Assembly (NCBI GenBank): GCA_964612625.1
Contig: CAZTCK010000001.1
Coordinates: 34,284 to 63,203, forward strand
Direction: 5' to 3'
DNA: 28,920 nt
Source: an uncultured archaeon
Lineage (GTDB): Archaea > Aenigmatarchaeota > Aenigmatarchaeia > QMZP01 > QMZT01
A model generated the notes under the pieces. It saw nothing but the letters and a program-made list of their open reading frames with translations, made no database searches and had not been told where the DNA came from. The position numbers and the translations under genes were made by a program. Below are positions 4,692-28,920 of this stretch, piece after piece (positions within the stretch are counted from its first letter, which is position 1; each line of letters starts with the position of its first letter).

Positions 4692-5519
4692 ATGCATGCA
4701 CGAAAAACGATACTGGATGAGATTGTTGATACCGAAAGACCAGTAACCTGTATATGTCCGGAAAGCCCGGTTGTGTGCAGAAAAGATTCCAGCATAAAGG
4801 ATGTTCTTAAAATCATGCTCGGGAAAAAGTACAGAAAACTTCCGGTACTTGACAAATCAGGGCGTTTAAAAGGTGTTATTACCTCTGTAGACATGCTGAA
4901 TCTTCTCGGCGGCGGCGAAAAATACAGGACATTCAGGAGATGCAGGGAAAGCCTCAGAGCAAAGATTGAAAAATTCATGACAGACCGTGCGGCAACAATA
5001 GAACCGAAGACGAGCATAGGCGAAGCTGCAGATGTTTTCAGAAAGGAGGGCAGGGGATTTTATCCGGTTGCTGATTCGGGAAGGATAGTATCTGTTGTTT
5101 CCGAATGGGATATCGTGAAACTGCTGAAAAAACCGACAGGAATTAAGGTTTATGAGGTTATGTCAGAAAGGCCGATTGTGGCAAGGGGAGACTACATAGT
5201 ATACGATACTGCTAAAATGATATGCAGGGGAGGCTTCAGGAGATTGCCGGTTGTCGAAAACGGGATACTGACAGGAATAGTGACACCAACCGATATTCTC
5301 AACCATTTCATAAGGGGCGGATCAAAAAACCTTCTGCATGACGCAACACCCCTGGAGATGATTATGAAGAAGAATGTGGTGACGGTCAGTCCGGATGAAG
5401 ACATCTTTTCTGCGGTAAAAACCATGAAAGGCAGGAGAGTCGGAGGCATGCCTGTTGTGGAAGACGAGGAACTTCTTGGTATAATAACCGAGAGGGACAT
5501 ACTGGATGTAATCGCATGA
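4692..5519 (+). CDS. Four-CBS-domain (two Bateman module) protein
   Basis: Repeated CBS motifs (YRKLPVLD..GVITSVD; GFYPVAD..VVSEWD; FRRLPVVE..GIVTPTD; VGGMPVVE..GIITERD). ATG 4692 preferred over the track's GTG 4677. Confidence 0.9.
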   Translation: MHARKTILDEIVDTERPVTCICPESPVVCRKDSSIKDVLKIMLGKKYRKLPVLDKSGRLKGVITSVDMLNLLGGGEKYRTFRRCRESLRAKIEKFMTDRAATIEPKTSIGEAADVFRKEGRGFYPVADSGRIVSVVSEWDIVKLLKKPTGIKVYEVMSERPIVARGDYIVYDTAKMICRGGFRRLPVVENGILTGIVTPTDILNHFIRGGSKNLLHDATPLEMIMKKNVVTVSPDEDIFSAVKTMKGRRVGGMPVVEDEELLGIITERDILDVIA

Positions 5520-5965
5520 AAAAAATAGACGAAGAGGAAATGAACAGAATTATAGAAGAACTGAAAGACGCCCTTGTTGTGGTAGAGGGCAAAAGAGACG
5601 AAAAAGCTTTAAAAAGCCTCGGGGTGAAAGATATTATTACCATCGACGGGAAACCGCTTTACGAAGTGGCTGAAATCCTATCGAGGTCAAAAAAGGACAT
5701 AGTCATACTGACAGATTTCGACAGAAAGGGCAGGGAGATGAGAAATAAGCTGAGAAACCTGCTCCAGAGACGCGGGAAACATCCCAATTCAAAATTAAGA
5801 GGAAAGATAATGTCTTTGGGAAGAAACAAAATCGAAGACTTCGGAAATCTTGATATCCGAAGCTCTCTTAAGGAGGTTGATGTTTATGTCAAAACTTGCA
5901 CCAAGTTCAATAAAATACGTGATAAAAGCGGAAATAGACGCAAAAGGGGTAATAGAGAAACCTGA
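5516..5965 (+). CDS. Small stand-alone Toprim-domain protein (RNase M5/primase-like)
   Basis: VVVEGKRD and ILTDFDRKG (conserved E and DxD); ATGA coupling to the CBS gene; 3' tail overlaps dnaG. Confidence 0.88.
   Translation: MKKIDEEEMNRIIEELKDALVVVEGKRDEKALKSLGVKDIITIDGKPLYEVAEILSRSKKDIVILTDFDRKGREMRNKLRNLLQRRGKHPNSKLRGKIMSLGRNKIEDFGNLDIRSSLKEVDVYVKTCTKFNKIRDKSGNRRKRGNRET
5871..5880 (+). promoter_or_regulatory. Shine-Dalgarno site of dnaG
   Basis: AGGAGGTTGA with ATG 5886 at canonical spacing. Confidence 0.7.
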
Positions 5966-7070
5966 TGTTATAGGGGCTATTTTTGGTCAGACCGAGGGTT
6001 TGCTCGGTCCGGATCTCGACCTCAGGGAGCTCCAGAGAACCGGGAGAATAGGGAGGATCGAGGTCAACATAAAATCGGAGAAGGGCAAATCACACGGGGA
6101 GATTATAATACCTTCTTCTCTTGACTCAGCCGAGACAGCCCTTATAGCAGCAACGCTCGAAACTATAGAAAGGGTAGGTCCCTGCTCGGCAAAGATAACG
6201 CTGAAATCAGTAGAAGATACAAGAGAAGCAAAAAGAAAATTTGTGGTGGAAAAGGCCAAAGCGATACTCAAGGAATTGCTTGACAAGGGCATACCGGATA
6301 CGTCAAAAATAGCAGAGGAGATAAAGGAGGAGATAAAGACCTACGAAATAACAACATATCACGGACTTCCGTGCGGCCCCAACCTTCTTGACTCAGAAGA
6401 GATAATCATCGTTGAGGGAAGGGCAGACGTGATAAACCTCGTGAAGTACGGAATAAAGAATGTAATAGCCATAGAAGGGAGTTCGATTCCGCAGGCTATA
6501 ATTGACCTTTCGAAAGAGAAGATAACAACAGCATTCCTCGATTCGGACAGGGGAGGAGACCTGAACCTCAAAAGCCTGCTGGAAACCGCGGACTTGGATT
6601 ATGTAGCCATCGCTCCCGAAGGAAAGGAGGTGGAGGAACTCTCGAAGAAGGAGGTTTTCAAGGCACTGAGAGAAAAGGTTTCTGCTTCTCAGTTCAAGAT
6701 GGAAAAGCACAACCAGGCAGACAGGAAGGAAAAACTACCTGCCAGACAATTTGCAAAACCACAGCCGAAAACAGCAAAGATAACAGAGGAACAGAGAAAA
6801 ATTTTCAAAAAAACCCTGGACGAGCTCATAGGGACACGCGCTGCGTGTATTTTTGATTCAGACTTCAATCTGCTCGGGAAGGTCCCGCTGAAGGAGCTGC
6901 AAAACACGCTGAAAACACTGGACAATCCGTATGCGGTGATATTTGACGGCAAGGTGGATTACAAACTGGATATGATCGCCAGAAGGAAGGGTATAAAGTT
7001 TCTTGTGGGGATGGAAAAGGAGAGAATGAAATCGCATATAAACATACTCTCCAAGGAAGACCTATCATAA
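5886..7070 (+). CDS. dnaG: Archaeal DnaG-type primase (exosome-associated DnaG)
   Basis: KYVIKA..GVIEKPDVIGAIFGQTEGLLG.DLDLRELQ.TGRIGRI, ETALIAATLETIERVGPC, IIVEGRADV and DSDRGG. Start placed at ATG 5886 from the SD. Confidence 0.96.
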   Translation: MSKLAPSSIKYVIKAEIDAKGVIEKPDVIGAIFGQTEGLLGPDLDLRELQRTGRIGRIEVNIKSEKGKSHGEIIIPSSLDSAETALIAATLETIERVGPCSAKITLKSVEDTREAKRKFVVEKAKAILKELLDKGIPDTSKIAEEIKEEIKTYEITTYHGLPCGPNLLDSEEIIIVEGRADVINLVKYGIKNVIAIEGSSIPQAIIDLSKEKITTAFLDSDRGGDLNLKSLLETADLDYVAIAPEGKEVEELSKKEVFKALREKVSASQFKMEKHNQADRKEKLPARQFAKPQPKTAKITEEQRKIFKKTLDELIGTRAACIFDSDFNLLGKVPLKELQNTLKTLDNPYAVIFDGKVDYKLDMIARRKGIKFLVGMEKERMKSHINILSKEDLS

Positions 7071-12942: not shown

Positions 12943-14628
12943 CTATTCTATTATCCTGAGACCCGTATACGTTCTCAGAACCCGGGCCGCTTTCTTTGCT
13001 TTTGTTTTGTATGGCGGGATATCCTTCTCTACCCATTCCATTATTATAGAAGGTTCCTTGTAATAGAGGTTGATCAGTTTTCCAACTTCATCAAAATCCG
13101 TAACACCAAACTTTCGCATCCATTCGAGTATCTTTGCCCTTGTTTTGAGTTCCTTTACGATTTCCTCGTATGTCACCCCCTTGTCAAATGCCATCTTTTT
13201 AAGAAGATAGGATTCTTCCAGGTTCTCCGAGAACGTATCTGTCGAGGGGTTCCAGTCAAATACCTTTATTGTGTGCGGCGTCCCTGTTTTCGGGTCAACA
13301 GATTCTATTTCATTTACTTCTTTGACCCTCCTTGCGGATTTGCCCTTCTCCTTTGCATGGACCATGACAACCACGATATCGAGTGTTTCTATCAGAGTTG
13401 GCGATAGTTCGATAGGGGGGGTCTCCAGACGTTTTATAACGTCTTCCACGGAGCCGGCATGTATAGTTCCGAGAGATGAGTGACCGCTTGCCATACCCTG
13501 AAACATAACATACGCTTCCCTCCCTCTCACTTCACCAACTATTACGTAATCCGGATTCTGCCTAAACGATTCCTTCAACAATTCGAATAACGTGACCTCA
13601 CCGTATCTCTTTCCGCCGACTTCAGGCACTCCGAACCCGATTCTGGAAACACTCGGTATCCAGTTCTCATGCGGGAGGTTGAGCTCGCGCGTATCCTCTA
13701 TCGAGACGATTTTGTCCTCAGGAGGGATAAACATGCTCATCACATTCAGGAATGTGGTTTTGCCTGTTGAAACCCCCCCGCAAATGAGGGTCGAGGTTCT
13801 CGATTCCACCATCAACCAGAGATATGCCATGAGGTCTGATGACGCCGTGTTGAAATTCAAGATGTCTATCGGGGAGAACGGTTCAACCCTGAACTTTCGT
13901 ATGGAAAATGTCGGGCCCTTCGTCGTGACGTCCTTCGCGAGTGTGGCCTGAACCCTCGACCCGTCCGGAAGCGAACCGTCAAGCAGGGGTTTTGCGTATG
14001 ATATGTATCTCCCGCAGCGTTCCGCGAGTTTTATGACAAAGTTGTTCAGATAACCACTGTCCTTGAAAACTATATTTGTTTCAATTGAGCCGAATTTCCT
14101 GTGGACAACAAAAACAGGGGTGTTCAAACCCGGGCATCCTATGTCTTCTATGTACGGGTCGTGAAGCAATCCCTCGATCTCGTTAAACCCGACAAAGTCC
14201 CGGTATATGTAATAAGTTATCTTTGCATACGTTTCGCCCGGTATCACGAGATTTTCATCTTCCAGAATTTTCTGCAGTTTCCCCTGTATGTATTCGAAAA
14301 CCTTCCCTCCTTCCCTGACCGCGGAAAGCTCGACGTCTATTATCTCAAGCAAATCCCTTTTTACAGTCTCCAGAATTTCTTTTTCATTCTTCGATAATCC
14401 CGGTTCTATCACGTGATAGACAAGACCCTTTTTTTCATGATTCCATTTTATGTGGGCATACACGAACGGCTCGAGAAGGGGGTATTTGACGTCGATTTCT
14501 GTGGCCTTTTTGAAGGAAGGGAAGATAATGAGGTGACGCGGTTCTCTTATCTCCACGCGAGGATATTTTATCCTTCCTGCCGTCCTGATTTTTTCTATTT
14601 TTTCCCTAAGTGCCCCCCTCAGGTTCAT
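12943..14628 (-). CDS. Type II/IV secretion / type IV pilus assembly ATPase (FlaI/VirB11/TadA family)
   Basis: GLLHDPYIEDIGC, PLLDGSLPDGSRVQAT, FSIRKF, Walker A GGVSTGKTT, IEDTREL, LKESFRQNPDYVIVGEVRG and GHSSLGTIHA. Confidence 0.95.
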   Translation of the reverse strand: MNLRGALREKIEKIRTAGRIKYPRVEIREPRHLIIFPSFKKATEIDVKYPLLEPFVYAHIKWNHEKKGLVYHVIEPGLSKNEKEILETVKRDLLEIIDVELSAVREGGKVFEYIQGKLQKILEDENLVIPGETYAKITYYIYRDFVGFNEIEGLLHDPYIEDIGCPGLNTPVFVVHRKFGSIETNIVFKDSGYLNNFVIKLAERCGRYISYAKPLLDGSLPDGSRVQATLAKDVTTKGPTFSIRKFRVEPFSPIDILNFNTASSDLMAYLWLMVESRTSTLICGGVSTGKTTFLNVMSMFIPPEDKIVSIEDTRELNLPHENWIPSVSRIGFGVPEVGGKRYGEVTLFELLKESFRQNPDYVIVGEVRGREAYVMFQGMASGHSSLGTIHAGSVEDVIKRLETPPIELSPTLIETLDIVVVMVHAKEKGKSARRVKEVNEIESVDPKTGTPHTIKVFDWNPSTDTFSENLEESYLLKKMAFDKGVTYEEIVKELKTRAKILEWMRKFGVTDFDEVGKLINLYYKEPSIIMEWVEKDIPPYKTKAKKAARVLRTYTGLRIIE

Positions 14629-16846: not shown

Positions 16847-17281
16847 TTAATACGGCCTGAACCCGAGACCCTGAATGTCGTATCTTCCTATCAAATCCTG
16901 CGCTCCCCTGCACTGAAGAGATTGGACAAAAACCTGCTTCAGCGTGTCATCCGCCGACAGTTTGACGGTTTTTATGTCCTGATACGAGATGTTGAGACTT
17001 TCGAATTTCTGGGAAACTATTGTTTCATTCTGATAAACCAGCCTTACAGAAAAACCCTCCAAAGGAACGTCACCGGTGTTGAAAAGCGCTAGGGACAGTT
17101 CTTTTGTATTGTTGTCGTAATAGGCCCTTTGTATGAGCAGCCCTGCTCTTGCACAGAACTGAAGCTCCGAACGGCTCTGCGTTACAAACTGCGTAGCCCA
17201 TCCTGCGAGAATTCCTGCAACAATCATGGTGAACGCTATCAGCATTATGACGGCAATCAGGGGGGATATACCTTTCCTCAT
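16847..17281 (-). CDS. Archaeal type IV pilin (class III signal peptide)
   Basis: MRKG|ISPLIAVIMLIAFT prepilin peptidase site and hydrophobic helix; two Cys; sequons NNT, NET and NIS. Confidence 0.9.
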   Translation of the reverse strand: MRKGISPLIAVIMLIAFTMIVAGILAGWATQFVTQSRSELQFCARAGLLIQRAYYDNNTKELSLALFNTGDVPLEGFSVRLVYQNETIVSQKFESLNISYQDIKTVKLSADDTLKQVFVQSLQCRGAQDLIGRYDIQGLGFRPY

Positions 17282-17285
17282 CTTA

Positions 17286-17765
17286 TCACTCCTTTGTTAT
17301 ACTCAACGTTTCAGCCGAAAACGTCGGGCATGCCTTGTTCAGGACCTTTACCTGGTCTGCTGTGCTGCCAAGCGCCGAATGATAATCGCCGTCCATGTTT
17401 ATTATTATTATGGCCGACCTCTGCTCTTTGAGAGGATTGCTTTCGGTTATGTTCGGGCTTATTGTAAGTCGGGTATCGCTTGAATTGTATACCCAGACGT
17501 CTGTCCCGTTGAGTACCTGCACGGTGAACCCGTAGAGTTCCACGCTTCCGAGATTCGTTATGATGATGGTCATGTTATTGGTCGATGAATCGAAACTCAC
17601 CGAATCAATCCTGTAGTTCGTGTTCGTGACGCATGCACTGCTTGCCTGCTGTGTTCTTGAACTTACCCAGTGGGTTATCCATGACGATATCATCACCCCA
17701 ACCGCAACGGTTATCGCTATAAGGAGAACAGCAGCTATCACTGGGGATATCCCTTTCATGCCCAT
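17286..17765 (-). CDS. Archaeal type IV pilin (class III signal peptide)
   Basis: MGMKG|ISPVIAAVLLIAITVAVG; two Cys; sequons NMT, NGT, NSS and NIT. Start ATG 17765 or 17759 rather than the track's 17783. Confidence 0.9.
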   Translation of the reverse strand: MGMKGISPVIAAVLLIAITVAVGVMISSWITHWVSSRTQQASSACVTNTNYRIDSVSFDSSTNNMTIIITNLGSVELYGFTVQVLNGTDVWVYNSSDTRLTISPNITESNPLKEQRSAIIIINMDGDYHSALGSTADQVKVLNKACPTFSAETLSITKE

Positions 17766-17812
17766 AATATATATAAGTGGCAAGTGGCTAATATATATTT
17801 TTAAATAAGTGC
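17765..17812. repeat. Short direct-repeat cluster in the divergent pilin/ppdK promoter
   Basis: TAATATATAT (17765-17774 and 17789-17798) flanks tandem AAGTGGC x2 (17775-17788); degenerate AAGTGC at 17807-17812. Confidence 0.6.
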
Positions 17813-21141: not shown

Positions 21142-22647
21142 ATGAAATTTTATACATTCCTTGCCCTGTCCTTGCTGTTCCTTGCGGGGAGCGCGGATGC
21201 CCTCATTATAAATGAGGTAGTTCCGAATCCCGTTAACAGGAATAACGAATGGGTTGAACTATACAACCCGGAAAATGCGGACATGAATTTTTCACTCTGG
21301 TTAATAGGAGATGACGAAGAAGCCGATGAAATAACATGTCACACCATTGAGAATTGTTCGCTGGAAACAAACGAAACGTACATACTGATAATAGGGCGCG
21401 GAGCCAACATATCGGACATAACAAACGAGAGCGTGACTTATTTTTACGTCGATGATATGAGAATAGGCAATTCCTTGAGCAACACCGGGGACAACGTGAG
21501 CCTCTACAATTCAACAGGTCCTGTTGATAACGTTGTCTACCCTCCCTTTTCAGACAAAAAGGGCTATTCATGGGCGAGAGACGAAAAAGGAAACTGGTCT
21601 TATTGTATTTTGCCGACGCCCGGGAAGCCCAACATTTTCACAAACACCTCTGAAAACGAAACCGAAGAAAATCAAACAGAAATTGATAACGTGTGTGATC
21701 TCCACCTCTGGATAAAATGCAACAGTACATTCGGTCTGGAAAGCAACAAGTATTACCCGATGGTCGAAGACCTGAGAGGCGGGAGTTTCAGGCCGGAGGT
21801 CGAATACTGGATAGAGGACATGTTCGGCAACATCGTGAGACCGAAGCGGAGAACCAACAACACCAATGTCGCCAAATCATGGAAACCGCCTGAAATCAAA
21901 GGAACGGAAGCGTATGTGATACGTGCGGTGATAACGAATATTGTGTGCAACGACACCAATATCTCCAACAATCGCGCAGAAAAGGTTATTGTAGTCAAAG
22001 GGAACGAACCATATTCAGAATGTGTATGCGAAACAAAGATTGTAGAAAAACCGTGCTCCTGCAGTCCGTGTCCGAAATGCATTTCTAGGGAAGAGAAAAA
22101 CAAAAGGCATGAGGAATTCGAAATACTTTCGTATCCGGTTTCCGTGAGAATAGGCGAAGATATCACGGTGGAACTCAGGATAAGAAACCCGTTTTCCCAT
22201 GACAGGAATTACACGGTTTATTCATACGCGTACAGCAGAAATAAACCGATCTCTCTCGGTTTCGACGGGAACCGCTGGCTGAGTGGATGGGATGCGAACA
22301 AACAGGAAATTTCACTCTCCCCGAATTCCTCCATCATCCTTGAGCTGAAGAACAGAATAGCGAACGCCACAGAACCCGGGAAGTATAAACTCAGGGTGAG
22401 GATACTTTGCAATGGGAAAAAACACGACATAACGAAGGATATCATGGTGAACGAAGGCATAGTGGTCCCTGAAAACCCTGAAAACAAAACCGAAAACAAA
22501 ACATCCGAATATGAAACAACTGAAAAACACGATTTTGAAAGACACGACAGAACACCGACAGGCCGGGTGATTTCAAGCGGTGATAACTGGTTCTCAGCTT
22601 TCGTTGAAAACGTAATCAATTTCTTTAAAAACCTGCTCAGTTTATAA
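21142..22647 (+). CDS. Secreted lamin-tail-domain (LTD) surface glycoprotein
   Basis: Sec signal peptide (..LAGSADA), LTD motifs IINEVVPNP..NEWVELYN, LSNTGDNVSL, YSWAR, PTPGKPN. Ig-like beta-rich domains follow. About 20 N-x-S/T sequons by hand count. Cys-rich CVC..CSCSPCPKC linker and amphipathic C-terminus. Confidence 0.82.
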   Translation: MKFYTFLALSLLFLAGSADALIINEVVPNPVNRNNEWVELYNPENADMNFSLWLIGDDEEADEITCHTIENCSLETNETYILIIGRGANISDITNESVTYFYVDDMRIGNSLSNTGDNVSLYNSTGPVDNVVYPPFSDKKGYSWARDEKGNWSYCILPTPGKPNIFTNTSENETEENQTEIDNVCDLHLWIKCNSTFGLESNKYYPMVEDLRGGSFRPEVEYWIEDMFGNIVRPKRRTNNTNVAKSWKPPEIKGTEAYVIRAVITNIVCNDTNISNNRAEKVIVVKGNEPYSECVCETKIVEKPCSCSPCPKCISREEKNKRHEEFEILSYPVSVRIGEDITVELRIRNPFSHDRNYTVYSYAYSRNKPISLGFDGNRWLSGWDANKQEISLSPNSSIILELKNRIANATEPGKYKLRVRILCNGKKHDITKDIMVNEGIVVPENPENKTENKTSEYETTEKHDFERHDRTPTGRVISSGDNWFSAFVENVINFFKNLLSL

Positions 22648-22915: not shown

Positions 22916-23677
22916 ATGGCAAGGATTATTGCTGTATCCTCCGGTAAGGGTGGCGTCGGGAAGACGACACTCGTTGCGAACCTCGCTGCTGCCCTCGCCC
23001 GATACGGAAAATCGGTTGTAGCCCTCGACGCGAATCTCACGACATCCAACCTTGCCATACACCTCGGCATGCACCTCTACACTCGAACACTCCACGATGT
23101 TCTGGAGGGGAAGGCGAGGATAAGGGATGTCACATACGAACACAAATCCGGTTTTAAAATCGTTCCGGCTGACATATCATTCAGAAGGATAAGGGATGTG
23201 AAAACGCACGAATACCTCGATATTTTTTACAAACTCATCGAAGACCACGACTTCGTTCTGATAGATTCGCCCGCGGGTTTGGGGAGAGACTCGATCGCAA
23301 CGATAGAGGCGGCGGATGAACTCATAACCGTAACAAACCCTGAACTTCCCGCTGTAACCGATGCGCTCAAGCTGAGTCTCATCGCCAAAAAATACTCCAC
23401 ACATAATCTGGGTGTGGTTGTTAACAGGATAAAAAGGGAATCGCATGAGGTCCCTGTTGAACACATAGAGAAGATGTTAGGCCTGCCGATAATAGGACGA
23501 ATTCCTGAAGACAAAGAAGTCCGGAAGGCGATCGCTCTGAAGGAGCCGGTTGTCTCCCACAACCCGAAGTCTATCGCTGCGCAACATATGAAAGCGATTG
23601 CGGCGAAACTTATCGGGGAAGAATATGAACCGAAAATCCCGTGGGGTCTACGTCTGTTCGGCTGGCTGACGAGGTAA
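22916..23677 (+). CDS. minD: Archaeal MinD-family ATPase
   Basis: Deviant Walker A SGKGGVGKTT, LDANLT..NL, LIDSPAGLG, VTNPE..AVTDA, VVNR, IPED..V; amphipathic C-terminus LRLFGWL. Confidence 0.9.
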   Translation: MARIIAVSSGKGGVGKTTLVANLAAALARYGKSVVALDANLTTSNLAIHLGMHLYTRTLHDVLEGKARIRDVTYEHKSGFKIVPADISFRRIRDVKTHEYLDIFYKLIEDHDFVLIDSPAGLGRDSIATIEAADELITVTNPELPAVTDALKLSLIAKKYSTHNLGVVVNRIKRESHEVPVEHIEKMLGLPIIGRIPEDKEVRKAIALKEPVVSHNPKSIAAQHMKAIAAKLIGEEYEPKIPWGLRLFGWLTR

Positions 23678-24376
23678 TCGCCCGGACATTCTCGCCACGA
23701 GAACGCTTATTTCAAAAAGTATCATCATAGGCAAAGCAACGAGTACCTGCGTTACAGGGTCGGGAGGCGTTATGACCGCAGCAACCACGAATATGAGGAT
23801 TACCGCATAACCTCTTTTTTCCGACAGACTTTTTGCATCTATTATTCCGGCCTTAACCAGAGCGAGCGAAATCACGGGCAACTCGAATATCACGCCCATC
23901 GTTATACACGTGAGGAAAACGAAGTTCACGAAGTAGTTCACGCTCCAGAGGTTCGCTATTCCTGCAGAAGAGGCGAGTGAGCTGAAAAACCATATTATGA
24001 CCCTGAGCAGGATGAAATACGAGAAAAGGAAACCTGTCACGAAAAGCACGGACCCGGAAACTATAGACAGCTTCGCTATTTTCCTCTCCCTTTCATTCAG
24101 CCCCGGTTTCATGAAGGCGAACACGTGATAGAGAAGAAGAGGGATGGAAAGAAGGAGCGCGAAGAATATACCGATGTTTATCTTCACCAGGACGTATTCC
24201 AGCGGATGTGTAACGATCAGATGAACGTCAGGAGAAAATAGGTCAGAGTTCACCCTGTTCATTATGTGGTCACTCGCGAGAAAGCCGATTATGAAGAACC
24301 CGAGGAAAACAATGGTTATCACAAGTAAGCGAAACCTCAGCTCGCTTAAATGCTCTAAAACGCTTTTCTCTTCCAC
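23648..24376 (-). CDS. tatC: Twin-arginine translocase subunit TatC
   Basis: EHLSELRFRL, HPLE, PGLNERE, FELP, ITPPDPVTQ and LFEIS; six hydrophobic segments; GTG start after AGGTG. Confidence 0.95.
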   Translation of the reverse strand: MEEKSVLEHLSELRFRLLVITIVFLGFFIIGFLASDHIMNRVNSDLFSPDVHLIVTHPLEYVLVKINIGIFFALLLSIPLLLYHVFAFMKPGLNERERKIAKLSIVSGSVLFVTGFLFSYFILLRVIIWFFSSLASSAGIANLWSVNYFVNFVFLTCITMGVIFELPVISLALVKAGIIDAKSLSEKRGYAVILIFVVAAVITPPDPVTQVLVALPMMILFEISVLVARMSGRLPRQPAEQT

Positions 24377-24389
24377 AGAATTAACACCT

Positions 24390-24560
24390 TTAACCCGCGG
24401 GTTTTTTCCTTCGCTTCCTCTTCGGCTCCTCGATCTCCACGCTCTTCTTGTATTCCCTCACCGCTTTGCCTAACGCCTTCGCGAGTTCAGGAAGTTTTTT
24501 CGGACCGAGTATTATCAGGATTATGAAGAGGATTATCAGAACTTCAGGCAAACCTATCAT
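24390..24560 (-). CDS. tatA: Twin-arginine translocase subunit TatA
   Basis: MIGLPEVLIILFIILIILGPKKLPELAKALGKAVREYKK (TM helix, G-P hinge, amphipathic helix). ATG 24560 preferred over TTG 24572. Confidence 0.93.
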   Translation of the reverse strand: MIGLPEVLIILFIILIILGPKKLPELAKALGKAVREYKKSVEIEEPKRKRRKKPAG

Positions 24561-24607
24561 GCGAATCCCCAATATTTTACTTAATTCCCTAATTTATATA
24601 CTTATTT

Positions 24608-26761
24608 ATGGGCCTCGATTTAATACGGGGGAAAAGGGAGAAACTTCTGTTCTTCGCGATAACTTCCCTCGGCGTTTCATCTATCGTCACACAGCTCTTC
24701 CTCATGCGCGAGTTCCTGAACGTGTTTTACGGGAATGAGCTTGTTTTCGGCGTGATCCTGGGGAACTGGCTGCTGCTGACGGGCATAGGGAGTTATGCGG
24801 GGAAAGCGAGTAAAAAGGTGAAGGACAAAACAAAACTCCTCGTTTCTCTCCAGCTTTTGATCGCGGTTCTCCCCTTCTTCTCACTCGCATTCATCCGTGC
24901 GCTAAGGATGGTTCTCGTCCCCGGTGAGGCGGTGGATTTCGCGCACATCTTCCTCTCGAGTTTCGTGATACTCCTTCCCTACTGCGTGATTTCGGGGTTC
25001 CTCCTTACCCTTGCCTGTTCTGTCTTCTCACTCAAACGTTCCGGTGAGGATATAGGGAAGGTCTACCTGATGGACAATATAGGCGATATCCTCGGGGGTT
25101 TCCTCTTCTCCTTCATCCTGGTCTTCCTTTTCGACCCATTCCAGATGGCGTTCTTCCTTCTCTTCCTCATTCTGGTGTCAGCGTACTTCCTGGGCTCCTA
25201 TAACAGAAATAATATGCTTCGATTCATCGTGCTTGTTTCTATCGTTTTCTCGCTTTTCCTCCTCCCCCTCGATCTCAACTCCCTGACGCTCGGTTTCCTG
25301 TTCCCCTCCCAAACCATCGTATTCCAGAAATCCTCCCCTTACGGGTATATCGTGGTAACCGAAACTTCAGGCCAGCTAAACTTCTTCGAAAACGGTCTTC
25401 CTCTTTTCTCGACGGAGAACACGATCGAAAACGAGGAGAACGTTCATTACGCGATGGTGCAGCGTGAGAAACCGCGAAACATCCTTCTGATTTCCGGAGG
25501 CGTGGCGGGGACGACAAGTGAAATTCTGAAGTATAATGTCACGAGGATCGATTACGTCGAGCTCGATCCTTTGATAATTGAGCTGGGGAGAGCGTATACA
25601 AACAGCCTGGATGACGGAAGAATACGAACGTTCATGACGGACGGGCGGATGTTCGTGAAATTCGTGGACAACGAGTATGACGTCGTGATAATCGACCTCC
25701 CCGACCCGAGCACCGCGCAGCTCAACCGTTTCTATTCCCTCGAATTCTTCCGCGAGGTCAAGCGCATCCTTTCGCCTTCCGGCGTGGTTTCGCTGAGTCT
25801 GTCGTCATCTCCGAACTACATGAACTACGAAACCATCCGTCTCAACGCGATAGTTTACCGCACGCTGAAATCCGTTTTTGAACACGTGATCGTGATCCCC
25901 TCCGGGGACGAAAATTACTTCCTTGCTTCAGATTCTCCTTTAAGTTATAACATTTCCGGCCTGGTGAAGGAAAGGGGGATAGAGACGAAATACGTGAACG
26001 AACACTACCTGAAAGGGAAGCTCACGGAAGAGCGGATAAATTACGTAAGGAATGCGATCTCGAAGGAAAAACGGATAAACACGGACTTTGTCCCCCTCGC
26101 CTACTATTACCATCTCCTTTACTGGGAAAGCGAGATGGGCGGGGGAATATGGATAGTTTTCGTTATAGCGATAATCCTCGTTTTTCTCCTCCTTCGCTCC
26201 TCCCCCATCCCCTTCGCGATATCCACGACCGGATTCGCCGCTTCTTCCCTCGAAGTCATCCTCCTCATCGGCTTCCAGATCCTCTACGGCTACGTTTATC
26301 AGTACGTGGGCGTTATAGTCGCCTTTTTCATGCTGGGCCTCGCGATCGGTGCGTATTACGCGAACCTCACGATCAAAAAGAGAAGAAGGAAGGACATGGT
26401 GAAAATCGAACTCTCCATATTTTTGTTTTCCCTCTCGCTCCCCTTCGTTCTCCTCTTCCTCTCCTCTCTGAAAAACGAAGCGTTTGTTTCGCTTTCTTCC
26501 CTTATCTCATTCCCAATACTCACGTTGATCATCTCCGCGCTTGTAGGATTCGAATTCCCGATCGCCTCGAAATTGCACACGCGAAAGAAAGAGATCGAGC
26601 ACGCAGCGGGTGTTCTCTACGCCTCCGACCTCATCGGAGCGACAATAGGGGCGTTAATAACATCGACATTCCTCATCCCGATCCTCGGCGTGATCAACAC
26701 GTGCGTGCTCGTGGGCATAACGAATCTGGTTAGTGGAGTGGTGGTGTGGAAAACGAGGTAA
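24608..26761 (+). CDS. Polytopic membrane protein with central spermidine-synthase-like (class I SAM-dependent) domain
   Basis: N- and C-terminal homologous multi-TM modules flank SSPYGYIVV, PRNILLISGG, YVELDP, DGRMFV, YDVVIIDLPDP and FYSLEFF..LSPSGV. This is the fused MFS-like/spermidine synthase architecture; activity is unproven. Confidence 0.85.
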   Translation: MGLDLIRGKREKLLFFAITSLGVSSIVTQLFLMREFLNVFYGNELVFGVILGNWLLLTGIGSYAGKASKKVKDKTKLLVSLQLLIAVLPFFSLAFIRALRMVLVPGEAVDFAHIFLSSFVILLPYCVISGFLLTLACSVFSLKRSGEDIGKVYLMDNIGDILGGFLFSFILVFLFDPFQMAFFLLFLILVSAYFLGSYNRNNMLRFIVLVSIVFSLFLLPLDLNSLTLGFLFPSQTIVFQKSSPYGYIVVTETSGQLNFFENGLPLFSTENTIENEENVHYAMVQREKPRNILLISGGVAGTTSEILKYNVTRIDYVELDPLIIELGRAYTNSLDDGRIRTFMTDGRMFVKFVDNEYDVVIIDLPDPSTAQLNRFYSLEFFREVKRILSPSGVVSLSLSSSPNYMNYETIRLNAIVYRTLKSVFEHVIVIPSGDENYFLASDSPLSYNISGLVKERGIETKYVNEHYLKGKLTEERINYVRNAISKEKRINTDFVPLAYYYHLLYWESEMGGGIWIVFVIAIILVFLLLRSSPIPFAISTTGFAASSLEVILLIGFQILYGYVYQYVGVIVAFFMLGLAIGAYYANLTIKKRRRKDMVKIELSIFLFSLSLPFVLLFLSSLKNEAFVSLSSLISFPILTLIISALVGFEFPIASKLHTRKKEIEHAAGVLYASDLIGATIGALITSTFLIPILGVINTCVLVGITNLVSGVVVWKTR

Positions 26762-26767
26762 TATGAA

Positions 26768-28177
26768 TCACTCCTCCCAAACTTCCGCCTGATACGTTTC
26801 GATGCGAACGTCGGGTTTCGTCCAGCAGTCGGGAGGTGATCCCTGTTTCAGGCAGAGTCTCGAAAGAAAGTCCTGTTTGTTGGGAAGCGAGCCCCAGACC
26901 TGCGGGAGATACGTGGATGTTCGCCCGCGATAGTGTATAACGACCCCGTCCACCCCCGGTCTGAGCTTTTCGAGGAGGTCCTGCGGACTTTCGAAAGCCA
27001 ACGGTTTCGGAACGGAGAGGACGGAGATTTCGATCTTTATGTCTTTCAGTTCTTCATATGTTACGGCTTCGAATCTCGGATCGTTAAGAGCGGCGTTCAC
27101 CGCGTTGTCTATGACGCATTTATAGAGTTCTTCCTGCGGGAGGATGTGCCCTATACATCCGCGGAGGTTTCCGAATTTGTTGAGCGTGACGAAGCACCCG
27201 CGTATTTCTCTCAACTTCAGCGTGAGTTCGCTCGCTTCGACCTTTGGTTTGCCCTTCCCGCTCAAATAGGATTCGAGGGTTTGCCTCGCGAGTTTCGTGA
27301 GGAACTCCCTTTCCTCTTTCGAAAAGCCCGTTTCGTAAAATGCGATGGAAGCGTAGCCAACGACGCGCGATTTATCCCCGGCTGTATCGCCCGAATTCCT
27401 GTAATCGAGCAGTTTCCCCTCCCATCCAAAATCCTTCGCGAGATGCATGAGCGTCAGGATGGGGATTTTCCCGCATGCCTCGCATGCGTCCATCCCCTCA
27501 AAATCGAGCGAGGGGATAGAATGAATACAAAACGCATCCAAACTCTTCGCCTGTTCATAGGGGTAGTAATGCGAAAGGTCAGAGCTCGCGATAACGAGCG
27601 TCCGGTCATCAATGTATTTCGAAAGTATCTTCGCGAGGGTTTCAGGATCTATATCACCGACAACAATCGGGATGATCTCGAAATCGTACAAAACCTTCTG
27701 CAGGAACGGGATCTGAACCTCCACCGAGTGTTCTTTCGCATGAATCCGCTCATCGTAAAAGAAATATCTCTCCTTCCGTAACCCGTCCGCTTTCTTCGAA
27801 ATTCTTACGAGTCCCAGCGGGGTCTCGTAGTGGGTCGCGTTCGGGATGGAAAAACCGGAAAAACGGGCGTGATGCGAAGGACCGAGTATTATGACCGTGT
27901 CGTAGCGTTCGCCCTCGAGCTGTTTGTATCCGTAGGCGGCAACAGGGCCGGAGTAGATATAACCCGCATGCGGCGAAACGAGACCTCTAACCTTCGTCAA
28001 GCTTTTCTCCGCCTGCGAAAGGTATTCCGATATTATGGAATCGAGCTCATTCGCGTCCGCGGGGTAGAAGGCCCCTGCGACATTCGGCTTCTTCACAATC
28101 ATCTTCTCGCCCCCTTCGGTTACACATCCTGAAACCAGGAGGACGAATAAAATCACGAGCACGAACCTCAAATTCAT
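26768..28177 (-). CDS. amrB: AmmeMemoRadiSam protein B (Memo)-protein A (AMMECR1) fusion with lipoprotein-type signal peptide
   Basis: Memo motifs VAGAFYP, PHAGYIYSG, GPSHH, EHSVEVQ, SSDLSHY, CG, NSGD. AMMECR1 motifs GCFVTL, LRGCIG, DPRF, EISVLS, YLPQVW. N-terminal MNLRFVLVILFVLLVSG|C. ATG 28177 overlaps the amrS stop (ATGA). Confidence 0.93.
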   Translation of the reverse strand: MNLRFVLVILFVLLVSGCVTEGGEKMIVKKPNVAGAFYPADANELDSIISEYLSQAEKSLTKVRGLVSPHAGYIYSGPVAAYGYKQLEGERYDTVIILGPSHHARFSGFSIPNATHYETPLGLVRISKKADGLRKERYFFYDERIHAKEHSVEVQIPFLQKVLYDFEIIPIVVGDIDPETLAKILSKYIDDRTLVIASSDLSHYYPYEQAKSLDAFCIHSIPSLDFEGMDACEACGKIPILTLMHLAKDFGWEGKLLDYRNSGDTAGDKSRVVGYASIAFYETGFSKEEREFLTKLARQTLESYLSGKGKPKVEASELTLKLREIRGCFVTLNKFGNLRGCIGHILPQEELYKCVIDNAVNAALNDPRFEAVTYEELKDIKIEISVLSVPKPLAFESPQDLLEKLRPGVDGVVIHYRGRTSTYLPQVWGSLPNKQDFLSRLCLKQGSPPDCWTKPDVRIETYQAEVWEE

Positions 28178-28920
28178 AACTTCCACACCCCCGCTATCGG
28201 CTCGCCACAGAAGGCGCAGGAATCGTTTTCGATGTGATTCTGAAGAATCGAATAACCTTTCCTTTCGATAACGATTTTCCCGCAGTGCGGACAGTAAGTA
28301 TTCTCCCCCTCATGCCCCGGGACATTCCCTATGTACACGAATTTCAACCCGACGTCCATCGCGATTTCCCTCGCTTTCTCCAGCGTTTTAACGGGCGTGG
28401 GAGGGAGATGTTTCAGTTTGTATTCGGGATGAAAGCGTGAGAAGTGGAAGGGGTAATCCCTCCCAAGATTTCGCGCAATCCACTCACACATCTCCCTTAT
28501 CATTCCGAAATCATCCGTGTACGTGGGGATGACGAGGTTTGTGATCTCAAACCACACGTTTTCGCTCTTCAGGATTTTCAGCGTGTCCAGGACCGGCTGC
28601 AACCGACCGGCATTGAGCGTGTTGTATATTTCCTCCCTGAAGCTTTTGAGATCGACGTTCGCCGCATCCAGATATTTGCAGAGGTCACGAAGTGCTTCTT
28701 CGCTCATGTAGCCGTTCGTTATCCAGAGGTTCTTTATACCATGCGAACTCGCTAGCTTCGATGTATCGTACATATACTCGTAAAACGCGGTGGGCTCGGA
28801 ATAAGTGTAGGCGATGGAAGCGCATTTATACGCCAGCGCATTCTTCACAACATCTTCCGGGAAGAGTTCAACATTTTTCGTGTCTTCCGGTCTGAACTGC
28901 GAGATTTCCCAGTTCTGGCA
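28174..28920 (-). CDS. amrS: AmmeMemoRadiSam radical SAM enzyme, partial (5' end beyond the right edge)
   Basis: The frame stays open to the window edge and reads CQNWEISQ (end of the CxxxCxxC motif), then AYTYSEP, ITNGY, AANVDLK, EITNLVIP, HFSRFHP, YIGNVPG and TYCPHCG. Confidence 0.93.
   Translation of the reverse strand, partial: CQNWEISQFRPEDTKNVELFPEDVVKNALAYKCASIAYTYSEPTAFYEYMYDTSKLASSHGIKNLWITNGYMSEEALRDLCKYLDAANVDLKSFREEIYNTLNAGRLQPVLDTLKILKSENVWFEITNLVIPTYTDDFGMIREMCEWIARNLGRDYPFHFSRFHPEYKLKHLPPTPVKTLEKAREIAMDVGLKFVYIGNVPGHEGENTYCPHCGKIVIERKGYSILQNHIENDSCAFCGEPIAGVWKL

Follow-up and report, generated by a model that had tools for sequence, protein, structure and literature searches.

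A predicted membrane-tethered variant of the AmmeMemoRadiSam system in an uncultured hydrothermal-vent archaeon

Background

Memo and AMMECR1 proteins are conserved from archaea to humans and have links to human disease, and we know of no reaction or substrate that has been established for either. Human MEMO1 (3BCZ, 7KQ8, 7L5C) is a cytosolic, single-domain protein without a signal peptide. Memo is said to have been linked, in an abstract of 2019 by Burroughs and colleagues, to the modification of nucleotide bases and isoprenoids. The stand-alone archaeal AMMECR1 proteins are likewise free of signals. They have been associated with PIN and NFACT genes, and a role in RNA modification was predicted for them (PMC4075521, PMC6393860). 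In the AmmeMemoRadiSam system an AMMECR1 protein (protein A, TIGR04335) and a Memo protein (protein B, TIGR04336) are combined with a radical SAM protein (TIGR04337).

Archaeal lipoproteins carry a thioether-linked lipid that is attached by enzymes of the AliA/AliB type (arCOG02177). Processing of an archaeal lipobox has to our knowledge been shown experimentally in haloarchaea only. The lipoproteins that are known or predicted so far are mainly substrate-binding or redox proteins; according to predictions, they are prevalent among Euryarchaeota and DPANN, and most of them are Sec substrates (PMC12462473). Regarding redox enzymes, DsbD, FMN_bind and NapH/NosR-like proteins were described as trans-membrane electron-transfer modules of extracytosolic enzymes, in a study without mention of radical SAM, Memo or AMMECR1 proteins (Meheust et al. 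2021, PMC8238504).

No description of an exported AmmeMemoRadiSam system was found in the literature searched (Burroughs et al. 2019 was not covered), and this literature yielded neither a report of an extracytoplasmic radical SAM enzyme nor one of a Memo or AMMECR1 protein with a lipobox.

Here we analyzed a stretch of 28,920 nucleotides from an uncultured archaeon, referred to as the window. All three AmmeMemoRadiSam families are present in it above their curated cut-offs, with proteins B and A fused and the fusion apparently coupled in translation to the radical SAM gene. The window version differs from the described system by a lipobox on the fusion, a Tat signal on the radical SAM enzyme of its relatives, tatA and tatC alongside and a polytopic SpeE-like membrane partner. 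We give a probability of roughly 0.75 to the reading that the locus encodes an extracytoplasmic, membrane-tethered variant of the system with a membrane or envelope substrate. Export, lipidation and substrate are inferred in this reading.

Results and discussion

Composition of the fusion gene

The open reading frame of the fusion is real and has the span given in the original prediction, which was silent on the strand; it lies on the minus strand (Table 1). An in-frame GTG is located 9 nt upstream of its ATG, at 28186. The Memo domain was recognized by Pfam PF01875 (residues 31-278, 210 bits, cut-off 27) and by TIGR04336 (residues 29-280, 263.1 bits, cut-off 26), the latter over profile positions 1-270 of 270. 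The AMMECR1 domain matched PF01871 (residues 295-467, 165 bits, cut-off 25) and TIGR04335 (residues 292-467, 197.2 bits, cut-off 99). Since both domain models begin later, residues 1-28 of the fusion lie outside of either model. Homologs of the fusion already bear the public names 'AmmeMemoRadiSam system protein B/A'.

An AlphaFold2 model of the fusion had a mean pLDDT of 93, with confident domains from approximately residue 27. Its Memo part has the fold of human MEMO1 (TM-score 0.80 against 3BCZ and 7KQ8, 27-28% identity), and the MEMO1 chain aligns from its residue 3 to residue 27 of the fusion. The motifs PHAGY, GPSHH and SSDxxH align with MEMO1, and the His/Asp ligand positions are conserved as H70, H102, D200 and H203, all of which were invariant in an alignment of 28 sequences. 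C235 was at least 90% conserved in the same alignment. It is located in C-G-K-x-P-I, resembling the surroundings of MEMO1 C244, and the equivalence of both residues is inferred from the motif only. The AMMECR1 part shares its fold with human AMMECR1, PH0010 (1VAJ, TM-score 0.83), MM0484 (1ZQ7) and ST0229 (1WSC). Within the LRGCIG motif at residues 338-343, L338, R339, G340, C341 and G343 were invariant. In contrast to the stand-alone archaeal proteins, this domain scored best on the AmmeMemoSam_A model and is predicted to be exported. Judged by motif and profile both domains are intact, and catalytic activity can be inferred at most, as activity data are lacking.

Table 1. Position of the analyzed features within the window
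Feature	Position	Strand	Remarks
tatC	23648..24376	-	PF00902, 192.6 bits; same position in L005 and L006
tatA	24390..24572	-	PF02416, 62.7 bits; same position in L005 and L006
Polytopic membrane protein, 717 aa, central spermidine-synthase-like domain	24608..26761	+	Convergent with the fusion gene
Memo-AMMECR1 fusion precursor gene (AmmeMemoRadiSam proteins B and A fused)	26768..28177	-	469 aa; ATG at 28177, stop at 26768-26770
AMMECR1 domain, residues 292-467	26777..27304	-	Profile matches and alignment to 1ZQ7 and 1VAJ
Memo domain, residues 29-280	27338..28093	-	Profile matches and MEMO1 alignment
Internal ATG (Met26), candidate alternative start	28100..28102	-	Start position of signal-less relatives
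Predicted Sec-type lipoprotein signal peptide MNLRFVLVILFVLLVSG and lipobox Cys18, codons 1-18	28124..28177	-	Read from sequence and rule
Lipobox V-S-G-C (V15-S16-G17-C18)	28124-28135	-	Read from sequence
ATGA overlap	28174..28177	-	Radical SAM stop TGA 28174-28176, fusion ATG 28175-28177
AmmeMemoRadiSam radical SAM gene, 3' part, 248 codons	28174..28920	-	N-terminus beyond window end
SD-like GGGGGTG	28186..28192	-	-15 to -9 of the fusion ATG; inside the C-terminal radical SAM codons (…GVWKL*)

N-terminal signal of the fusion and its conservation

The fusion begins with MNLRFVLVILFVLLVSGCVTEGGEKMIVKKPNVAGAFYPA, in accordance with the earlier reading. R4 is located in the n-region and is followed by an uncharged core (F5-V15) and by a Cys at position 18. 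This layout fits the lipobox pattern of archaeal lipoproteins such as those processed by AliA/AliB in Haloferax volcanii, for which we used [LVI][ASTVI][GAS]C with the Cys at approximately position 15-35, preceded by a hydrophobic core and, before this core, by a charged n-region. A lipoprotein rule in the style of PROSITE PS51257 was satisfied as well (Cys18, K/R within the first seven residues). The window has 68 ORFs of 100 aa or more, and none but the fusion passed this rule. A tether of about eight residues separates the signal peptide MNLRFVLVILFVLLVSG and the Cys that follows it from the Memo domain. In the AlphaFold2 model residues 4-15 form a separate helix (pLDDT ~60), and residues 17-22 are disordered (pLDDT < 50).

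The evidence for the signal peptide consists of rule-based and hydropathy checks only. Within these limits the lipoprotein signal that had been proposed for this gene was borne out, and the Memo His/Asp/Cys motifs and the AMMECR1 LRGCIG motif, likewise described as intact, proved invariant or nearly so in the 28 sequences. Cleavage before Cys18 and its lipidation are expected by inference; no experimental data exist.

A hydrophobic N-terminal segment, defined as a 15-mer before the Memo domain with a mean Kyte-Doolittle value of at least 2, was found in 116 of 121 homologous fusions (49-99% identity). Absence of the extension from all close homologs, which was to have refuted the original prediction, is thereby ruled out. 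On this comparison of sequences the hydrophobic N-terminus is not an artefact of gene calling. The lipobox itself was kept in the clade of the window, comprising P0001-P0004 and L088 (65-99% identity), as [LI][VIL]SGC at positions 15-26; lipoboxes were also present in bacterial-type fusions. The genome-contig search yielded only four distant relatives. Among these, metagenome-assembled genomes carried a lipobox together with Tat (Acidobacteria), a Sec signal (Rifleibacteriota) or no signal (Bathyarchaeia).

The flanking charges of the fusions had a median net value of +3 before and 0 after the hydrophobic run, with a median uncharged run of 21 residues, and the charge was higher before than after the run in 98 of 111 fusions. 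This indicates an N-in/C-out orientation, with the catalytic domains predicted to be outside.

The radical SAM partner

The ATGA overlap of the radical SAM and fusion genes suggests translational coupling. Stop-to-start overlaps of both genes were found elsewhere, spanning 4 nt in L005, L007 and L088 and 13 nt in L006. Motifs comparable to the SD-like sequence in front of the fusion precede the L1, pilin and tatC genes of the window.

The radical SAM fragment reached 281 bits on TIGR04337 (cut-off 220). Since its N-terminus lies off the window, a Tat signal was inferred from a close relative: P0127, which starts with MTRREFVKKGLLLAAGVGIGAYA, is 94% identical to the fragment in protein, and its contig L088 is 92% identical to the window in DNA. 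The N-terminus of P0127, in which A-Y-A is a possible cleavage site, scored 17.2 bits on TIGR01409 (cut-off 16.7); together with those of L005, L006 and P0190 the range was 17 to 27 bits. A simplified TatFind rule was passed by 112 of 120 radical SAM homologs, compared with 1.2% of shuffled N-termini, and the consensus was K-I-S/T-R-R-E/D-F-I/L-K-K. The twin-arginine signal in front of a cofactor-containing enzyme resembles that of Tat-exported Fe-S enzymes. Logan contigs from vent runs that overlapped the window end added a 30-nt overhang with the radical SAM motif CNFRCxxC and stopped short of the N-terminus. Exact-sequence look-ups with the window protein and with P0242 returned no contig.

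The signals of both genes could be compared at 52 loci. A signal on the fusion was paired with Tat on the radical SAM protein at 25 loci, 16 had neither, and none combined a Tat-bearing radical SAM protein with a signal-less fusion. At six loci (L025, L036, L057, L058, L077 and L082) a signal-bearing fusion was accompanied by a radical SAM protein without N-terminal extension. A neighbour-joining tree groups the signal-less versions as a single clade, which means that no more than a handful of evolutionary events may underlie the covariation. For this reason the Fisher test (p ~2e-7) is not taken as a probability.

Elsewhere in the family, bona fide TIGR04337 domains (362-416 bits) were fused to DsbD_2, FMN_bind, NapH/NosR-like (including a NapH-like Fer4_5), CBM_11 and beta-propeller modules, with a TM or Tat-like segment at the N-terminus. 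Fusions to FMN_bind, Fer4_5 and DsbD_2 resemble extracytosolic electron-transfer systems. P0257 and P0262 have an FMN_bind domain first and the radical SAM domain next, without a TM segment between them. Two triple fusions, P0255 and P0277, had only a Sec-like or TM segment, and signal-less triple fusions exist as well. In P0277 more positive charge was found after the TM segment than before it, which suggests a cytoplasm-facing orientation of this protein.

Neighbouring genes

Besides tatA and tatC, the neighbourhood encodes the 717-aa membrane protein with 14 TM segments. It matched NF037959 (fused MFS/spermidine synthase) with 64 bits (cut-off 40) and PF01564 with 87 bits, and remained below the equivalog cut-offs of PRK03612 (207.8 vs 472 bits) and TIGR00417 (86.8 vs 249.6 bits). 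In polyamine aminopropyltransferases the Asp of the GGGDG motif selects decarboxylated SAM. The window protein has SGGVAG instead (family consensus ggG..G), without this Asp. The name spermidine synthase (SpeE) was rejected on both grounds.

The 14-TM protein accompanies only signal-bearing versions of the system. Where the loci were fully flanked, it occurred at 19 of 24 whose fusion bears a signal and at none of eight whose fusion does not; overall the figures were 31 of 54 and 0 of 26. Hydropathy averaged over the family, together with K/R counts, places the SpeE-like domain outside, with readings from both sides in agreement, and its outward orientation is thus a prediction.

In the closest relatives an 80-aa protein with two TM segments lies upstream of the radical SAM gene. 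Its matches to cytochrome b561, Sdh_cyt and DUF4405 were all sub-threshold, and we do not claim it as an electron carrier. All-against-all clustering of neighbouring ORFs revealed no further widely conserved partner, most clusters being alternative-frame artefacts. The window also carries archaeal markers, namely RadA, RPA, archaeal pilins, L10/P0 and an RtcB/archease pair. No tRNA genes were found in it.

Proposed model

The model builds on the observed signals and their conservation, on synteny and on the integrity of the domains. In this model the fusion precursor would be exported via Sec, its first 17 residues serving as a lipoprotein-type signal peptide, and Cys18 would become the lipid-modified new N-terminus. 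The intact Memo-AMMECR1 protein would then be held by its short tether at the outer face of the cytoplasmic membrane. The coupled radical SAM protein may be exported via Tat, folded and with its Fe-S cluster; tatA and tatC lie next to these genes. The 14-TM protein, with a presumed outward AdoMet-fold (spermidine-synthase-like) domain, would be a further conserved partner. Given the extracytoplasmic placement of the components, the substrate would most likely be a membrane or envelope molecule, such as a lipid, an isoprenoid or a surface polymer, and not cytoplasmic RNA. Actual export, lipidation, the orientation of the domain in the membrane partner and the nature of the substrate are inferred, and nothing about them is experimental. 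The original prediction had argued against a purely cytoplasmic target; this argument is strengthened by the Tat signals of the partner, the adjacent tatA and tatC genes and the membrane partner found with signal-bearing versions only.

A stronger form of the model is more tentative, and we would rate its chances at slightly under even. In this form the radical SAM protein, Memo, AMMECR1 and the AdoMet-fold domain of the 14-TM protein constitute a complete modification system outside the cytoplasmic membrane. Radical SAM enzymes depend on SAM and on a reductant of low potential. In other lineages the exported enzyme may be wired to trans-membrane electron modules of the DsbD, FMN or NapH type. 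SAM might leave the cytoplasm as a cofactor that is tightly bound and regenerated, or it might be supplied via the polytopic MFS/SpeE-like partner. Points against the model in either form are the lack of an evident SAM source outside the cell, the six loci with a signal-less radical SAM protein, and the absence of Tat from P0255 and P0277.

Alternative explanations

Translation might begin solely or additionally at Met26, giving a cytoplasmic Memo-AMMECR1 protein, and in the extreme case the extension would never be made. Met26 coincides exactly with the start of the signal-less fusion L002 of Bathyarchaeia (MIRKPAVAG), and its ATG is preceded, at a distance of 9-15 nt, by a G-rich stretch (AAGGGGG). 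However, L088 has lost this stretch at 92% identity, only 18 of 116 homologs have a Met at the corresponding position, and the hydrophobic extension is retained nearly throughout the family. Additionally, it is the upstream ATG that has the ATGA overlap and the SD-like motif, and the radical SAM partner and the neighbouring genes point to export. We therefore regard a start at Met26 as very improbable. A start at the internal Met only, which would have refuted the original prediction, is accordingly unlikely. Its further suggestion of an internal-Met cytoplasmic isoform stands merely in so far as a minor isoform cannot be excluded, because Met26 coincides with the start of signal-less relatives. 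The N-terminal segment, if made, could also be an uncleaved signal anchor, so that a type II membrane protein would be held at the outer face by its TM segment without being lipidated. About 100 of the 121 homologs have a K/R-rich n-region and a hydrophobic run of ~21 residues without a Cys, which makes a plain anchor the commonest state of the family. For the window protein this is nevertheless unlikely: its hydrophobic core of 11 residues is short for a TM helix, the lipobox was kept within its clade (P0001-P0004, L088) despite divergence to 65% identity, and predictions point to many lipoproteins in Euryarchaeota and DPANN (PMC12462473).

Two other explanations concern the radical SAM protein and the sidedness of the whole system. 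The enzyme could be a maturase: it would modify the Memo-AMMECR1 polypeptide itself, for instance at the conserved Cys/Gly loop, and the two would not act jointly on a small molecule; a shared compartment would then be unnecessary. Anaerobic sulfatase-maturing enzymes (anSME), which act before Sec export, would be a precedent, as would glycyl-radical activases. TIGR04337 is most similar to the glycyl-radical activating enzymes PFL-AE, NrdG and YjjW, and the six loci whose radical SAM protein is signal-less despite an exported fusion would fit. Yet the export signal of the radical SAM protein in the clade of the window, detected in 112 of 120 homologs, would be superfluous for a maturase acting before export. 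The modules fused to it elsewhere (FMN_bind, DsbD and NapH-like) imply that the enzyme goes through repeated redox cycles at the membrane, and the signal-less triple fusions speak against a maturase as well, which leaves us doubtful of this explanation. Finally, all components could be anchored in the membrane and still face the cytoplasm, where SAM and reductant are found, with the signals being N-out anchors or non-functional look-alikes. The charge distribution of P0277 agrees with this. It is hardly compatible with the N-in/C-out bias of the fusions (98 of 111), the classical lipoboxes in archaeal and bacterial members, the canonical Tat motif scoring above the TIGR01409 cut-off, and the adjacent tatA and tatC genes. 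Furthermore, P0257 and P0262 have the radical SAM domain behind an FMN_bind domain of extracytosolic type with no TM segment in between, and we give a cytoplasm-facing system very little credence.

Implications

The extracytoplasmic reading would place the action of this enzyme system from an uncultured hydrothermal-vent archaeon probably at the outer face of the membrane and not in the cytoplasm. The export signals extend to a large clade of DPANN-type and other archaea and of several anaerobic bacterial phyla, which by this prediction exports Memo/AMMECR1 proteins and apparently the radical SAM enzyme too. Should the stronger form of the model hold, the cytoplasm is not the only place of radical SAM chemistry. 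This would be a surprise for radical SAM enzymology, where a cytoplasmic supply of SAM and reductant is assumed. To judge from the fusions, electrons could arrive through modules of the DsbD, FMN_bind and NapH-like kinds, and the AdoMet link that is still missing might be the conserved 14-TM SpeE-like protein. The predicted export narrows the search for the substrate of Memo and AMMECR1 to molecules that can be reached at the surface of the membrane. In the stronger form of the model, prokaryotic relatives of human MEMO1 and AMMECR1 would act on a membrane-proximal substrate other than RNA.

The fusion protein and its N-terminus

The Memo-AMMECR1 fusion begins with MNLRFVLVILFVLLVSGCVTEGGEKMIVKKPNVAG… and its n-region contains a single Arg (R4), followed by 11 uncharged hydrophobic residues and the lipobox V-S-G-C18. 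The N-terminal sequence and lipobox of the original prediction were confirmed by reading the ORF, which was the only one among 68 window ORFs of at least 100 aa to satisfy a PROSITE-style lipoprotein rule. The Memo and AMMECR1 motifs had been described as intact as well, and H70, H102, D200, H203 and LRGCIG were indeed invariant in an alignment of 28 sequences. In the AlphaFold2 model (mean pLDDT 93) residues 4-15 formed a separate helix, residues 17-22 were disordered and confident domains started at around residue 27. The model matched MEMO1 (TM 0.80) and PH0010 (TM 0.83), and the same PDB entries were recovered by sequence search. The protein clearly belongs to the AmmeMemoRadiSam system, a label that public sources already give to its homologs.

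The fusion ATG at 28177 shares an ATGA overlap with the stop codon (TGA) of the radical SAM gene upstream. It is preceded at -15 to -9 by GGGGGTG, similar to the SD-like motifs of other operon-internal genes of the window, and an in-frame GTG is located 9 nt upstream (28186).

The 120 best homologs (49-99% identity) were all Memo-AMMECR1 fusions, the named ones originating from Altiarchaeota, Woese-, Aenigm- and Nanoarchaeota, Theionarchaea and some bacteria. Together with the window protein, 116 of 121 fusions carried a hydrophobic 15-mer (mean Kyte-Doolittle of at least 2) ahead of the Memo domain. Absence of the extension from homologs would have refuted the proposed signal peptide; since it is conserved to this extent, that objection fails. 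The uncharged run had a median length of 21 residues, with a median net charge of +3 in the 15 residues before it versus 0 after it, and in 98 of 111 fusions the preceding side carried the higher net charge. Due to this asymmetry the catalytic domains are predicted to lie outside according to the positive-inside rule.

Positions of the analyzed features (window positions unless a relative's contig, L, is named)
Feature	Position	Strand	Remarks
Memo-AMMECR1 fusion ORF	ATG 28177, stop 26768-26770	minus	469 aa
Pfam Memo PF01875	fusion residues 31-278		210 bits, cut-off 27
Pfam AMMECR1 PF01871	fusion residues 295-467		165 bits, cut-off 25
TIGR04336 (AmmeMemoSam_B)	fusion residues 29-280		263 bits, cut-off 26
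TIGR04335 (AmmeMemoSam_A)	fusion residues 292-467		197 bits, cut-off 99
SpeE-like polytopic protein, central spermidine-synthase-like domain	24608-26761	plus	717 aa, convergent, NF037959
tatA	24390-24572		two genes away from fusion
tatC	23648-24376		two genes away from fusion
Small membrane protein upstream of radical SAM gene	L005:6573-6818, L006:6493-6822, L007:6567-6812, L088:302-544		~80 aa, not in window
Cys-rich secreted protein	L005:9460-10881		473 aa
Lamin-tail protein	21142-22647	plus	501 aa
PilB/T2SSE-type ATPase	12943-14628	minus	
Archaeal type IV pilin-like genes	16847-17281, 17286-17783	minus	two genes
Overlapping Toprim ORFs	5516-5965, 5850-7070	plus	different frames

A probable Tat signal on the radical SAM partner

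The upstream gene encodes the AmmeMemoRadiSam radical SAM enzyme (TIGR04337, 281 bits versus a cut-off of 220, on 248 residues only). Its 5' end is beyond the window, so the N-terminus had to be read from relatives. The fragment was 94% identical to the homolog P0127, whose contig L088 shares 92% DNA identity with the window across the whole overlap, and P0127 begins with MTRREFVKKGLLLAAGVGIGAYAFASF…. Among long contigs the next-closest are L005 and L006, where the enzyme begins with …KISRRDFIKKG… and …KITRREFVKKG…, respectively. A simplified TatFind rule was met by 112 of the 120 best homologs versus 1.2% of shuffled N-termini. Their consensus K-I-S/T-R-R-E/D-F-I/L-K-K led into a Gly/Ala-rich h-region that frequently ended in A-Y-A, and four of the 112 combined the Tat motif with a lipobox. 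The remaining eight comprised four RK or RM variants and four that were N-terminally truncated or without the region. TIGR01409 gave 17-27 bits (cut-off 16.7) for four tested N-termini, and Pfam TAT_signal matched homolog P0190. The genes tatA and tatC are arranged identically in L005 and L006.

In all four closest relatives the gene immediately preceding the radical SAM gene encoded a conserved small protein with two TM segments and conserved His residues (…LHLNL…, …IHxGI..YF.L+R); its only matches, to cytochrome b561/Ni_hydr_CYTB, Sdh_cyt and DUF4405, stayed below threshold. A role as membrane electron carrier for the exported enzyme is possible but unproven.

The radical SAM fragment was also searched against 1.84 billion representative proteins, resulting in 923 clusters at E ≤1e-30, of which the best 150 included signal-less, Tat and fused forms. 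All 10 fused examples scanned scored 362-416 bits with TIGR04337. The domain was preceded by a CcdA-like 6-TM domain, DsbD_2, in P0246 and P0256, by DsbD_2, FMN_bind and a NapH/NosR-like module in P0261, by TM, FMN_bind and NapH-like modules in P0271 and P0273, and by a single N-terminal TM or Tat-like segment and FMN_bind without TM in between in P0257 and P0262. A TM segment was combined with CBM_11 in P0252 and with a beta-propeller in P0248. Loop charges of P0246 (12 inside versus 2 outside) place its radical SAM domain outside. FMN_bind, NapH-like and DsbD modules are trans-membrane electron-transfer devices of extracytosolic redox enzymes (PMC8238504), a source without any mention of radical SAM, Memo or AMMECR1.

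Triple fusions were found without signal (radical SAM-AMMECR1-Memo, ~950-1150 aa). P0255 (Memo, AMMECR1, radical SAM; 835 aa), one of the 10 scanned fusions, and P0277 (radical SAM, Memo, AMMECR1; 838 aa) instead carried their three domains after a single hydrophobic segment at the N-terminus (a signal and a TM, respectively) lacking an RR motif. Charges of P0277 were higher after the TM than before, suggesting that it may face the cytoplasm. In both proteins either an Fe-S domain would have to be exported via Sec, in an unexplained manner, or the domains may face the cytoplasm. Judged from these architectures, work at the membrane would be the common denominator of the family, and in the window's clade all predicted signals point to the outer face.

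As a separate observation, the radical SAM gene of P0288 is interrupted by an intein (Intein_splicing and LAGLIDADG_3 matches); P0336, P0361 and P0381 have similar N-terminal sequences (no domain scan).

A SpeE-like membrane protein adjoins the signal-bearing fusion

The convergent neighbour matched NF037959, fused MFS/spermidine synthase, with 64 bits versus a cut-off of 40. Relatives, counted down to 25-35% identity, adjoined the fusion in 31 of 54 loci with a signal-bearing fusion versus 0 of 26 without; where both flanks were at least 2.5 kb, the numbers were 19/24 and 0/8. Family-averaged hydropathy and K/R counts indicated a topology of 7 TM, domain and 7 TM, which by this crude prediction puts the domain outside, read from either side. 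Nucleotide-binding motifs were kept (GxGxxG, VELDP, DGR, …LPDPxTAQLNRFYT), and the family-specific LPDPxTAQLNRFYTxEFF was highly conserved. The GGGDG motif lacked the Asp responsible for selecting decarboxylated SAM (SGGVAG in the window), and SpeE equivalog models stayed below their cut-offs. A spermidine synthase identity was thus rejected in favor of the name AdoMet-fold domain. From its motifs the domain is probably not a classical aminopropyltransferase but a binder of SAM or a related nucleotide.

In one relative, L005, the fusion and SpeE-like genes are separated by an additional gene for a Cys-rich secreted protein, which has an HExxH-like motif (FAHEAGHLMGL) but no significant Pfam match.

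Pairing of signals across loci

Both genes were present in 52 fetched loci. A fusion with signal, anchor or lipobox was paired with a Tat-bearing radical SAM enzyme in 25 loci, and both proteins lacked a signal in 16; a signal-less fusion with a Tat-bearing enzyme was never found. Signal-bearing fusions were further paired with a radical SAM enzyme carrying a plain TM segment (2 loci), having no N-terminal extension (6 loci) or not assessable because the gene was cut by the contig end (3 loci). Neighbour-joining grouped the signal-less class into a single clade, and the class with exported fusion and signal-less radical SAM enzyme arose twice within the signal-bearing group. The association of the signals is clear, though few evolutionary events may underlie it.

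Proposed mechanism and alternatives

We propose that the fusion precursor would be exported via Sec, with Cys18 lipidated and the signal peptide removed, both of which are inferred. In Haloferax, lipidation of the AliA/AliB type is known. For Euryarchaeota and DPANN, predictions indicate that lipoproteins are common (PMC12462473). The mature protein would be held at the outer membrane face on a tether of ~8 residues, with the Tat-exported radical SAM enzyme and the 14-TM partner's outward AdoMet-fold domain next to it. The system may act on a membrane or envelope substrate; reaction chemistry and SAM source were not identified. SAM might reach the outside as a cofactor that stays bound and is regenerated, or the MFS-like partner might supply it; both options are speculation.

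Three main rivals have to be weighed. The motif [LI][VIL]SGC is kept in the window's clade (homologs P0001-P0004 and L088, 65-99% identity) and classical lipoboxes occur in bacterial-type members, but most other homologs have a plain signal anchor; an unlipidated anchor would give the same location. A cytoplasmic isoform could arise from the internal Met (residue 26, ATG 28100-28102) considered in the original prediction. This Met is positioned where signal-less relatives begin, such as a Bathyarchaeia homolog starting with MIRKPAVAG, and looks like the ancestral start with the signal added later in front. However, only 18 of 116 homologs have a Met there, and a relative of 92% identity has a deletion of the G-rich stretch in front of it. 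By this comparison the internal start is not a conserved feature, even though a minor isoform cannot be excluded.

The radical SAM enzyme could also be a maturase, which would account for the six loci (L025, L036, L057, L058, L077 and L082) in which a fusion with signal or lipobox is paired with an extension-less enzyme whose gene has a stop codon just upstream of M..VQCELCP. These loci do not fit a simple model with everything outside; there the radical SAM enzyme apparently does not accompany the fusion out of the cell.

Genomic context and significance

The remaining window content was archaeal (RadA, RPA, archaeal pilins, L10/P0, RtcB and archease), and near-identical sequence was found mostly in hydrothermal-vent metagenomes besides a few marine or sediment ones. 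The PilB/T2SSE-type ATPase and the pilin-like genes flank the RtcB/archease pair. The standard signal peptide (MKFYTFLALSLLFLAGSADA) and many N-x-S/T sequons make the secreted lamin-tail protein a probable surface protein, and a homologous gene is found at the same position in L005. The Toprim ORFs have one Toprim domain each; separate genes, a frameshift or misassembly of this DnaG-like primase region could each explain the pair.

The exported configuration was not found described in the literature searched, which did not include the comparative study of greatest relevance (Burroughs et al. 2019). We could not find descriptions of the Sec/lipobox signal of the fusion, the Tat signal of the radical SAM enzyme, the SpeE-like partner or the electron-module fusions. 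A radical SAM enzyme that truly functions outside the cytoplasm would make the system highly interesting.
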